A DNA stretch of 16,521 bases, taken from contig JAZDJN010000112.1 in NCBI GenBank assembly GCA_043803945.1, positions 1-16,521 of the forward strand. The letters run 5' to 3'. How positions within the stretch are numbered: the first letter of the stretch is position 1; every line of letters starts with the position of its first letter. The notes under the pieces are model-generated. The model was given only the letters and a program-made list of their open reading frames with translations. It was not told where the DNA came from and made no database searches. The stretch comes from a bacterium. GTDB lineage: Bacteria > Bacteroidota > Ignavibacteria > UBA10030. This document shows positions 1,470-16,521 of this stretch, piece after piece. The translations under genes were made by a program, and so were the position numbers.

Positions 1470-1595
1470 CATACTCTATCGATGCTATATGTTGAAAGTC
1501 ATCACTAGTGAATATTCTGCAAGGAAATATTGTACCGCCTCAGCAAAGAGTGAAAGAGCAGCGACGCTGGCAGGAGAGAATCGCACTCAGGGGCA

Positions 1596-15494: not shown

Positions 15495-15800
15495 ATGGAT
15501 CAAATGAGCGAAGAGAAAAAGGAAGTAGACATCACAAAGATCGAACAGAAGCTAAATAAGAGAGGATTATCCCTCCGAGAAACTGCCCGCCAAATAGGTC
15601 TATCCCTCCCTACGATTCTCCGATTCTATAAAAACACCCACATTGGTAAGCGTAGCATCTTAAAAATGAAATTCTGGATTGATGAAGAAGACAAGCAGAA
15701 GAGGCAACGACCTGCTCAGAGGAGAAGAAGAATCCCTGAAATAATCAGATTGGCGATGAAGGGGTATTACAAACAGAGCATCTCACCTGATGTATTCTAG
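15495..15800 (+). CDS. Putative XRE/Cro-like helix-turn-helix protein
   Basis: RGLSLRETARQIGLSLPTILRF fits an HTH pattern; basic C-terminal tail. Confidence 0.65.
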   Translation: MDQMSEEKKEVDITKIEQKLNKRGLSLRETARQIGLSLPTILRFYKNTHIGKRSILKMKFWIDEEDKQKRQRPAQRRRRIPEIIRLAMKGYYKQSISPDVF

Positions 15801-15893
15801 TCAATAAAAAAGGGTGAGCCAGGGAGGTCGCAAGTCCTTTCACAACCAACCTGAGACCCGGGAGGGTCCCAAATCGTGCTGCAATAAAATAAA

Positions 15894-15924
15894 ACTGTTG
15901 CATGTTTGTCAGCAGTATTTTTTT
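15894..15924 (+). terminator. Possible intrinsic terminator after the HTH gene
   Basis: ACTGTTG/CAGCAGT stem followed by ATTTTTTT; an A-rich run precedes it. The stem is weak. Confidence 0.4.
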
Positions 15925-15990
15925 AACAGTTTTTTCTTTCCCTTAGGTCAAGTTAAATTATTAGGAAAAAAAAGGTGTTTAACTTTTAAC

Positions 15991-16019
15991 TTGACAAATC
16001 TTCGGCAACCGCTTATCTT
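15991..16019 (+). promoter_or_regulatory. Sigma70-type promoter upstream of the mini-ORFs and tRNA
   Basis: TTGACA (15991-15996), 17 nt, TATCTT (16014-16019). Confidence 0.7.
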
Positions 16020-16042
16020 ATTGTAAGAAAGGAGTTGATTTT

Positions 16043-16063
16043 ATGGGAAGAAAAAACGCCTAA
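16043..16063 (+). other. Mini-ORF MGRKNA (possible leader peptide)
   Basis: Strong RBS AAAGGAG directly after the promoter; ATG GGA AGA AAA AAC GCC TAA. Confidence 0.45.
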
Positions 16064-16162
16064 TACAATTATGAGACAAATTGTATTAGGCGCTGTAAGG
16101 AGTCTCGAAGAGTTGAAGCGGTTTGTCTAGACCGGCAGCCGCTTTAGCTCTTTACAAAGCGT

Positions 16163-16246
16163 GGAGAGGTGGCAGAATGGTTAATGCAACTGCCTTCTAA
16201 GCAGTCGTCTCGCGAGGACCTGTGGGTTCGAATCCCATCCTCTCCG
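16163..16246 (+). tRNA. tRNA with UCU (Arg) anticodon but class II, Ser-like body
   Basis: Acceptor GGAGAGG/CCTCTCC + G73; D arm GCA/TGC; anticodon stem ACTGC/GCAGT with loop CTTCTAA (TCT at 16196-16198); long variable arm GTCT/GGAC; T arm GTGGG-TTCGAAT-CCCAT. No encoded CCA (followed by CGA). Confidence 0.92.
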
Positions 16247-16270
16247 CGATGTTTTAATAGGGTTAAATAA

Positions 16271-16297
16271 TTAGATATGAAAAAATTTCATATCTAA
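16271..16297. repeat. Perfect 12-bp inverted repeat downstream of the tRNA
   Basis: TTAGATATGAAA-aaa-TTTCATATCTAA. Confidence 0.75.
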
Positions 16298-16300
16298 CAA

Positions 16301-16329
16301 ATTATAACAGATGTTATGATTGTAGTCAA
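16301..16329 (-). promoter_or_regulatory. Near-consensus sigma70 promoter facing back into the tRNA
   Basis: Minus strand reads TTGACT, 17 nt, TATAAT, with an extended -10 TG (ctTGACTacaatcataacatcTGtTATAAT). Confidence 0.7.
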
Positions 16330-16521
16330 GTTAATTTTGATTCTTGTAATTATTACAATGCCGAATTGTCTTAATTATTAATGAGTTTGCTATAAAAAGC
16401 ACCAATTGAAGATTTGTTCTGGTCACGATTTTGAGTGACACCTTCATTACCCGATTTGAGAAAATGTCACCATCGGGTAGGGGAAAAAATCAAATAATCA
16501 GATTTATGGTTTCATATTCTC

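Follow-up and report, generated by a model that had tools for sequence, protein, structure and literature searches.

A serine-type tRNA with the arginine anticodon UCU in a genome of the Ignavibacteria: a potential Arg-to-Ser mistranslator

Which amino acid is brought to the ribosome by a transfer RNA (tRNA) whose body is that of a serine tRNA but whose anticodon belongs to an arginine tRNA? This question is raised by a tRNA gene near the end of contig JAZDJN010000112.1 of assembly GCA_043803945.1 (Bacteroidota, Ignavibacteria, UBA10030). The window analyzed here is this contig (C112) at its whole length of 16,521 bp, and the genome, here called G000, is nearly complete and consists of 5.54 Mb in 118 contigs with a G+C content of 46.5%. 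A first-pass annotation of the window described a Ser-bodied 7/5 tRNA with a UCU anticodon that may insert Ser at AGA codons. The observation as a whole was confirmed by the sequence, by ARAGORN, by Rfam, and by a contig from an RNA library. Below, we discuss the origin of the tRNA, its expected charging, the meaning of the AGA codon in the genome, and the explanations that compete with mistranslation.

The tRNA is the only one that ARAGORN identified in the window (16163-16247, forward strand), with the anticodon tct at position 34. The Rfam tRNA model RF00005 matched positions 16163-16246 over the full length of the model (63.1 bits, E-value 6.2e-12), and no non-standard pairs were marked. 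The acceptor stem, GGAGAGG/CCTCTCC, contains seven base pairs, and the T arm, GTGGG-TTCGAAT-CCCAT, contains a 5-bp stem with one G.U pair. The D arm reads GCA-GAATGGTTAA-TGC, with T16181 placed directly after G18-G19, and the anticodon arm consists of the stem ACTGC/GCAGT and the loop CTTCTAA, in which T16196, C16197, and T16198 form the anticodon. The long variable region is made up of one unpaired nucleotide, a 4-bp stem (GTCT/GGAC, with one U.G pair), a 5-nt loop, and two unpaired nucleotides, which is the geometry of the native Ser(UGA) arm plus one loop nucleotide. The discriminator is a G at position 16246, A26 is present, and the nucleotides involved in tertiary contacts (U8, A14, G18G19, U33, A37, and the T loop) are kept. 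An eighth acceptor pair would be T8-T65, and the layout is therefore the canonical 7/5 rather than 8/4 or 9/3. Thus, the features from which the first-pass annotation had argued, namely the long variable arm, the GGAGAGG acceptor stem, G73, the CTTCTAA loop, and the T after G18-G19, can all be read in the sequence, as can the canonical cloverleaf with its 7-bp acceptor and 5-bp T stems.

The genome contains 47 tRNA genes and a transfer-messenger RNA gene, including genes for five tRNA-Ser (GGA, CGA, GCU, and two UGA), tRNA-Sec, and a 77-nt tRNA-Arg(UCU) on contig C44. The nearest relative of the window tRNA in this set is the 84-nt Ser(UGA) type, with 77% identity to the copy on contig C98. 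The window tRNA and the native Ser(UGA) have in common G73, the GGAGAGN acceptor stem, the GCAGAAYGGYTAWTGC D arm, A26, the T loop, and the layout of the variable arm. Among the 29 best-match loci fetched from a search of 60 genomes of relatives, 27 were tRNA-Ser(tga), with 73-79% identity for the full-length matches; of the other two, one was Ser-like with the anticodon tat and the other had no call. An origin from tRNA-Ser(GCU) through a G34-to-U mutation was rejected. The first-pass annotation had placed the anticodon loop one base away from that of tRNA-Ser(GCU), but the Ser(GCU) loop in this genome is TTGCTAA, which differs at two positions, its anticodon stem and other arms differ too, and the nearest body is that of Ser(UGA).

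Compared to the C98 copy of Ser(UGA), the window tRNA has 18 substitutions and one inserted base. These changes affect seven of the 24 stem pairs, including three of the five pairs in the anticodon stem, and yet all 24 are still Watson-Crick or G.U pairs. In a simulation that presumes a Ser(UGA)-like ancestor, only four of 200,000 random mutants of Ser(UGA) with 18 substitutions kept every stem pair. The Rfam score of 63.1 bits is higher than those of the five native tRNA-Ser (60.8, 57.0, 56.3, 54.4, and 34.1 bits), and the tRNA-Arg(UCU) scored 65.6 bits. Since all stem pairs are intact and the score exceeds those of all native Ser tRNAs, the gene looks maintained rather than like a dying pseudogene, an intact gene that would be kept under selection. 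The lowest of the native scores belongs to the second Ser(UGA) gene, at C32:25624-25707 (locus L107), which is decayed (34.1 bits versus 54.4 bits for the C98 copy), has lost G18 (AACAGC), and contains mismatches in the anticodon and T stems. Duplicates of Ser(UGA) thus arise and decay in this genome.

The anticodon arm has a different history from a Ser arm with a point-mutated anticodon, as judged from its sequence. The arm of the window tRNA, ACTGC-CTTCTAA-GCAGT, is identical at 15 of 17 positions to ACAGC-CTTCTAA-GCTGT, the sole difference being one flipped pair. The latter is the arm of the tRNA-Arg(UCU) in this genome and of 29 of the 30 tRNA-Arg(UCU) genes fetched from relatives. A specific graft of the arm from tRNA-Arg(UCU) is, however, not claimable: in a control comparison, four of the five stem pairs of this anticodon arm recurred in six out of 46 further tRNAs of the genome, and Lys(UUU) was identical at 14 of 17 positions. 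The best explanation is that the gene derived from the tRNA-Ser of the lineage, from which it has its UGA-type body, and that its anticodon stem has since been rebuilt and now presents UCU.

The identity elements of the tRNA make serylation the expected outcome. Among the features that mark a Ser identity, Giege and Eriani (PMC9976931) list G73, G1-C72, and G2-C71, and the window tRNA contains all three together with the long variable arm, in the same manner as the native Ser(UGA). The anticodon UCU is not one of the Ser anticodons (NGA or GCU), but the anticodon is not an identity element for seryl-tRNA synthetase (SerRS). The bacterial Arg identity, according to the same source, involves A20, which is the main determinant for arginyl-tRNA synthetase (ArgRS) in E. 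coli, C35, U or G at position 36, and A or G at position 73. Three of these are found in the window tRNA, C35 (C16197), U36 (T16198), and G73 (G16246). A20 is missing and replaced by U (T16181), whereas all five native tRNA-Arg have an A after G18-G19. These results bear out a Ser-type body that lacks A20, with the Ser identity set and the geometry of the native Ser(UGA). Nor is the window tRNA homologous to the class I tRNA-Arg(UCU) of the lineage (75-77 nt), since only the anticodon arm is alike. The genome encodes one SerRS with an N-terminal tRNA-binding arm, on C44, and one ArgRS with a DALR domain, on C104, and thus neither of them on C112. Each of these two domains had a single match in the genome, so no synthetase paralog was found that could serve the window tRNA.

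The consequence of serylation depends on what AGA means in this genome. AGA accounts for 9,219 of the 1,222,983 codons in 2,199 long open reading frames (ORFs), which corresponds to 7.5 per 1000 codons and 14% of the Arg codons. In RpoC, 28-29 of 29 relatives have Arg in the alignment column at nine of the ten AGA sites, and the remaining site is a Lys column, with pooled fractions of 0.89 for Arg and 0.00 for Ser. AGA makes up 10 of the 96 Arg codons in rpoC, compared to 0-14.9% in the 29 relatives, and is thus not avoided. We also compared the proteins with those in 380 kb of the closest available relative (G018). The 186 ortholog pairs contained 460 AGA sites, of which 306 aligned with Arg and nine (2.0%) with Ser, and CGN codons aligned with Ser at 1.1-2.3%. 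The idea of a local recoding device, put forward in the first-pass annotation, finds no support here, as there is no excess of Ser at AGA sites over CGN sites. A normal tRNA-Arg(UCU), with an Rfam score of 65.6 bits, is retained in the genome. This gene, at C44:8180-8256, has an encoded CCA end and a G2.U71 pair, and most of the other tRNA genes checked in the genome are without an encoded CCA. AGA is plain Arg in this genome, with no codon reassignment and no avoidance; neither the use of AGA as Ser at conserved Ser sites nor the loss of the Arg decoder, which together would mark a sense-codon reassignment, was seen. Because AGA is an ordinary Arg codon, the insertion of Ser would be mistranslation, and on this point the first-pass annotation stands.

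Taken together, our preferred reading is that the window tRNA is a SerRS-charged AGA decoder and potential Arg-to-Ser mistranslator that selection has kept intact and whose activity would be low or conditional, and we give this reading about an even chance. SerRS, which is blind to the anticodon, would read the long variable arm, G73, and the G1-C72 and G2-C71 pairs and place serine on the tRNA. The charged tRNA would then be delivered by EF-Tu, and its UCU anticodon would read AGA, and perhaps AGG, in competition with the tRNA-Arg(UCU) that bears A20. Ser would thus take the place of Arg, and how often it did so would depend on expression, charging, and competition. Serylation, use on the ribosome, and any benefit to the cell are all put forward here on the strength of the gene sequence.

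The sequence of the gene is also present outside the assembly, and the features that surround it are given in Table 1. A 193-nt contig from a groundwater metatranscriptome (run X1) covers the tRNA with no differences, which confirms the TCT anticodon in a library other than that of the assembly. The T at 16196, for which the first-pass annotation had asked for a check against reads, is thereby secured. Run X1 has no cover at positions 15600-16102 and 16296-16521, and these gaps are not to be read as evidence of a discrete transcript.

Table 1. Positions of the tRNA gene, its parts, and the flanking features in the 16,521-bp window
Feature	Position	Strand	Evidence
Promoter-like module: 11-nt inverted repeat GTCAAGTTAAA...TTTAACTTGAC overlapping the -35 box of TTGACA-17-TATCTT	15947..16019	+	promoter scan, 10/12
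Strong hairpin of 16 pairs followed by a T-run, terminator-like for minus-strand transcripts	16055..16094	-	terminator scan, fold
193-nt contig from groundwater metatranscriptome run X1, depth 9.7, 0 differences	16103..16295	.	search of public runs
Second leader hairpin with G.U pairs, 9 nt upstream of the tRNA	16107..16153	+	ViennaRNA
Class-II 7/5 tRNA, Ser(UGA)-type body, G73, U20, anticodon UCU, no encoded CCA	16163..16246	+	ARAGORN, Rfam, sequence comparison
Anticodon TCT (UCU) within the loop CTTCTAA (16194-16200), reads AGA, possibly AGG	16196..16198	+	sequence, ARAGORN, Rfam
Variable region CGTCTCGCGAGGACCT, 16 nt	16206..16221	+	sequence comparison
AT-rich hairpin of 12 bp in the trailer that follows the tRNA; it contains the end of the X1 contig	16271..16297	+	fold
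Promoter-like TTGACT-17-TATAAT with TG	16301..16329	-	promoter scan, 11/12
Terminal 140-nt repeat	16382..16521	.	blastn

The promoter-like module upstream of the gene is a putative promoter of the tRNA. The second and only other copy of this 73-nt module in the genome is located at C16:174346-174418, within a match of 92% identity over 86 nt (C16:174333-174418), about 250 nt upstream of a gene for a class II (B12-dependent) ribonucleotide reductase (RNR), NrdJ-like according to Pfam. The pair of modules suggests shared regulation or a duplicated promoter, and in the 500 nt that precede the RNR gene Rfam gave no match at E <=0.1. On the plus strand, the strong terminator-like hairpin would fall within the tRNA leader. 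The leader has a folding energy of -51.0 kcal/mol on the plus strand versus -34.5 kcal/mol for its reverse complement (ViennaRNA), and the G.U pairs of the second leader hairpin explain its better folding on the plus strand. A start near 16294 from the minus-strand promoter-like site would give an antisense RNA that ends at the terminator at 16094-16055, which we treat as a lead only. The predicted start is close to the end of the X1 contig at 16295. The AT-rich spacer, however, contains seven promoter-like sites compared to 2.6 expected from shuffled sequences, so the minus-strand site may be a chance match.

The genes next to the tRNA encode, according to Pfam and NCBIfam, a cupin with a DHCW motif, a small protein with a weak helix-turn-helix (HTH), a cysteine-synthase-like PLP enzyme, an amidohydrolase, and ABC transporter proteins. 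PADLOC identified no defense genes among the eight neighboring ORFs, the PHROGs matches of the neighbors were weak HTH matches alone, and no toxin-antitoxin or tRNA-dependent transferase genes were detected among the neighbors with PADLOC, Pfam, and NCBIfam. The roles of toxin or anti-phage effector suggested in the first-pass annotation are thus not supported by this gene context. None of 11 loci from relatives, taken around the ortholog of the DHCW cupin, contains a tRNA gene.

The terminal repeat of the window has copies at C13:57913-58052 (100% identity), C46:1-151 (98%), and C36:13541-13680 (95%, in the region C36:13471-13689). The copy on C13 (region C13:57913-59725) adjoins a gene for a 539-aa DDE transposase (PF13751, PF05598), and the terminal repeat is therefore probably the end of an insertion sequence (IS), which would explain why the contig stops. 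A probable IS copy, 135 nt downstream of the tRNA, thus forms the end of the contig. Such IS copies also break the assembly near other tRNA genes, with tRNA-Tyr and tRNA-Thr genes located ~300-450 nt from the repeat on C36. Since both the IS and the promoter module have copies on other contigs of the assembly, the window can be argued to belong to this genome. In a second public run, X2, which is a wetland metagenome, cover was limited to the IS-like repeat (16385-16521), and two others, X3 and X4, gave no cover.

To learn more about how widespread such a tRNA is, we searched other collections for a class-II tRNA with a UCU anticodon. In 400 genomes from the phylum, the pattern gave five matches outside the genome itself compared to six from a reversed control, and ARAGORN called no tRNA among them. 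One of the matches, L071 (G421:C5, positions 1472-1549), from the same class but another family, is Ser-like with G73, a long variable arm, and a UCU anticodon, and its first three acceptor pairs are broken. It had no ARAGORN call and an Rfam score of 48.1 bits over model positions 4-67, and is either a pseudogene or a remnant of an integration site. A stricter pattern that combined the D arm with the UCU anticodon gave one chance match in a coding region, and no tRNA, in 185,579 species genomes, a set from which the genome itself was possibly left out. In metagenome contigs, the same pattern identified four tRNA(tct) genes in five stretches (L064-L067). One of these, L065, is an intact Ser-like tRNA(UCU) of 87 nt (1300-1386, 54.3 bits) with G73 and C20, is followed after 125 nt by a gene for an IS1-like transposase (ORF 1512-2333), and represents a second, unrelated-looking instance of a mismatch between a Ser body and a UCU anticodon. 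The other three (L064, L066, and L067) have A73 and A20; L066 and L067 look like long-armed tRNA-Arg, and L066 is located within a tRNA array beside an 89-nt tRNA-Gly(UCC).

In viral contigs, the strict pattern identified one long-arm tRNA(UCU), L075, with A20 and A73, and a general long-arm UCU pattern identified 14 genes in 13 of the 80 returned loci (L164-L243). Most of these 14 genes have A73 and a few have G73 or U73, and many have an A after G18-G19. Together with L075, they are probably long-armed tRNA-Arg, as suggested by these nucleotides, and we know of no description of such a phage or low-GC class of long-armed tRNA(UCU). A search of the viral contigs for a GGAGAG-type acceptor stem combined with UCU gave no matches. 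Finally, a locus from another family of the same order, L028 (G048:C32, positions 1501-1585, minus strand), encodes a 7/5 Ser-like tRNA with a GGAGAGG acceptor stem, G73, and a long variable arm. Its anticodon is UAU (Ile AUA), two non-standard pairs are located at the top of the anticodon stem, and its Rfam score is 53.3 bits. This tRNA is reminiscent of the inactive group of allo-tRNA(UAU), but its layout is canonical.

Several of these results, and a few further ones, weigh against a Ser-inserting function of the window tRNA. An efficient inserter of Ser should be costly, and since AGA is common, not avoided, and mostly placed at invariant Arg sites in rpoC, the codon usage argues for low Ser-inserting activity or none. 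The class-II pattern with UCU had no match in the 276 other genomes of the order, and a looser pattern gave only noise-level matches and no long-arm tRNA(tct) in the 85 other genomes of the family, which makes the gene a singleton. The X1 contig has no strand and no true ends and is not proof of transcription, and its library may have come out of the campaign that also yielded the genome. On the minus strand, a promoter-like site and a terminator lie on either side of the gene. The long-arm tRNA(UCU) genes in phage contigs mean that a long arm alone is no proof of a Ser identity, and the case for Ser rests on the homology of the whole body to tRNA-Ser and not on the long arm. Some arginylation is possible, as the tRNA carries C35, U36, and G73. 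A part of these observations would fit a by-product of gene duplication, in which a duplicated tRNA-Ser with a drifted or recombined anticodon arm is weakly expressed, poorly charged, or out-competed, so that mistranslation is negligible and unselected. The singleton status in the order, the decayed C32 duplicate, the 5'-damaged Ser-like tRNA(UCU) of locus L071, the IS end that adjoins the gene, and the frequent and unavoided use of AGA, where an active Ser inserter should do harm, all point in this direction, and many allo-tRNA(UAU) genes are described as inactive (PMC5389517). However, 18 substitutions in a neutral pseudogene should have left broken stems, like those of the C32 copy, and the gene has instead kept all of its stem pairs despite the seven that changed, an outcome rarely reached by the simulated mutants, along with its tertiary nucleotides. 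It also has a tRNA score above that of every native Ser tRNA and is present in an RNA library. We consider a by-product unlikely.

Charging with Arg, or with both amino acids, would offer another explanation for the unavoided use of AGA, since a benign Arg identity would leave the tRNA as a harmless extra decoder of AGA, or as a mixed Ser/Arg tRNA, if ArgRS reads C35, U36, and G73 and tolerates both U20 and the long arm. All three are among the determinants listed in PMC9976931, the anticodon arm is nearly that of the tRNA-Arg(UCU) genes of the lineage, and the long-arm tRNA(UCU) in the 13 viral loci, L066, L067, and L075 suggest that a long arm need not block an Arg identity. The missing A20, which all native tRNA-Arg keep, speaks against it, as do the homology of the body outside the anticodon arm to tRNA-Ser and the lack of specificity of the arm similarity, which extends to other tRNAs in the genome. 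Moreover, since the anticodon plays no part in recognition by SerRS, serylation would be expected in any case, and charging with Arg or with both amino acids as the explanation appears quite unlikely. Less probable still, and very unlikely in our view, is a non-translational or regulated toxic role, either as a regulatory or IS-associated RNA, as a mistranslator held in check by an antisense RNA in a toxin-antitoxin-like manner, or as a seryl donor for a biosynthetic enzyme. Such a role would make sense of the minus-strand promoter-like site with a start next to the end of the X1 contig, the strong minus-strand terminator, the promoter module shared only with the class II RNR locus, and the nearby IS end; the analog L065 is also placed upstream of a transposase gene, and for allo-tRNAs a location close to toxin-antitoxin and transposon genes has been reported (PMC5389517). 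But promoter-like matches are common in the spacer, the X1 contig lacks a strand and true ends, and the neighborhood contains no detected toxin-antitoxin, defense, or transferase gene.

The reading of the gene as a Ser-charged decoder of AGA can be taken further. In this extended form, a free-living groundwater bacterium would keep a Ser/AGA hybrid tRNA of canonical shape under selection, express it conditionally, perhaps through the promoter shared only with RNR, and perhaps counter it with an antisense RNA, so that Arg-to-Ser mistranslation across the proteome would be switched on for stress, dormancy, or a response to invaders. We regard this scenario as improbable; if true, it would represent a host-encoded programmed mistranslator outside of the allo-tRNA and tRNA-ProX families.

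No genetic route to deliberate mistranslation is clearer than a natural tRNA whose anticodon does not match its body, and few bacterial cases are known. These are the tRNA-ProX of actinomycetes and the allo-tRNAs, the latter with unusual structures, mostly from metagenomes, and in many cases inactive. The window tRNA is not a new category, and its interest comes chiefly from the ease with which it can be tested. It combines a structurally ordinary Ser paralog, signs of selection on the cloverleaf, and presence in an RNA library with a competing tRNA-Arg(UCU) and a common AGA codon. If charged with Ser, it would provide a simple natural system for studies of tolerated sense-codon ambiguity and its regulation in a bacterium, as well as a ready 7/5 scaffold for studies of Arg-to-Ser mistranslation. 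If inert or charged with Arg, it would show how the identity rules of ArgRS and SerRS resolve a hybrid. A natural bacterial tRNA-Ser of the 7/5 type with the anticodon UCU was not encountered in the literature, in a search that lay outside the supplementary lists of allo-tRNAs, which may include 7/5 or UCU species.

Several known systems resemble the window tRNA in one respect and differ from it in another. The tRNA-Ser(UCU) of invertebrate mitochondria is likewise a Ser-type tRNA with a UCU anticodon, although for the window tRNA acceptance of Ser is a prediction. In these mitochondria, AGR is reassigned to Ser, and fidelity is described as a matter of rejection by ArgRS, as the Arg identity elements are missing (PMC4615739). 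This is a true reassignment with no competing tRNA-Arg(UCU), whereas AGA is Arg in the genome studied here and the tRNA-Arg(UCU) is present. The tRNA-Ser(CAG) of Candida and Ascoidea also reads the codon of another amino acid, in this case Leu, and decoding is ambiguous in some species (PMC6041473). It is, however, eukaryotic and lineage-wide with changed codon usage, while the window tRNA is found in one genome only, in which codon usage shows no sign of adaptation. The engineered yeast tRNA-Ser(UCU,G26A) combines a Ser body with the Arg anticodon UCU in the same way; it decodes mainly AGA and gave ~3% Ser-for-Arg substitution as measured by mass spectrometry (Berg et al., PMC8473984). The yeast tRNA is man-made and eukaryotic and carries a dampening mutation, while the window tRNA is natural and bacterial and differs from Ser(UGA) in three of the five anticodon-stem pairs.

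Among natural bacterial tRNAs, the tRNA-ProX of Streptomyces and Kitasatospora, which is paired with ProRSx, also has a body and an anticodon that disagree, and it causes mistranslation when expressed in E. coli (PMC11415595). It has a dedicated synthetase paralog and A33 and A34, unlike the window tRNA, for which there is one ordinary SerRS and which has a normal U33/A37 loop. The closest comparison is with the allo-tRNAs, which are Ser-type bacterial tRNAs with non-Ser anticodons, an 8/4 or 9/3 layout, and features that resemble tRNA-Sec, and whose 9/3 class includes anticodons for AGA/AGG (PMC5389517, PMC7609411). Those tested insert Ser in E. coli according to the body and not the anticodon (PMC5389517, PMC7609411). 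Many allo-tRNA genes are located near transposon or toxin-antitoxin genes, and many of the allo-tRNA(UAU) genes are inactive (Mukai et al. 2017, PMC5389517); the hosts named in a review are Clostridia, Proteobacteria, and Acidobacteria (PMC7609411). Similar to the allo-tRNAs, the window tRNA contains Ser identity elements and a non-Ser anticodon and is placed beside an IS end, but it has the 7/5 layout and is a plain paralog of the tRNA-Ser(UGA) of its host. As judged from its sequence, it is therefore best read as a tRNA that would resemble the allo-tRNAs in function but has a canonical structure.

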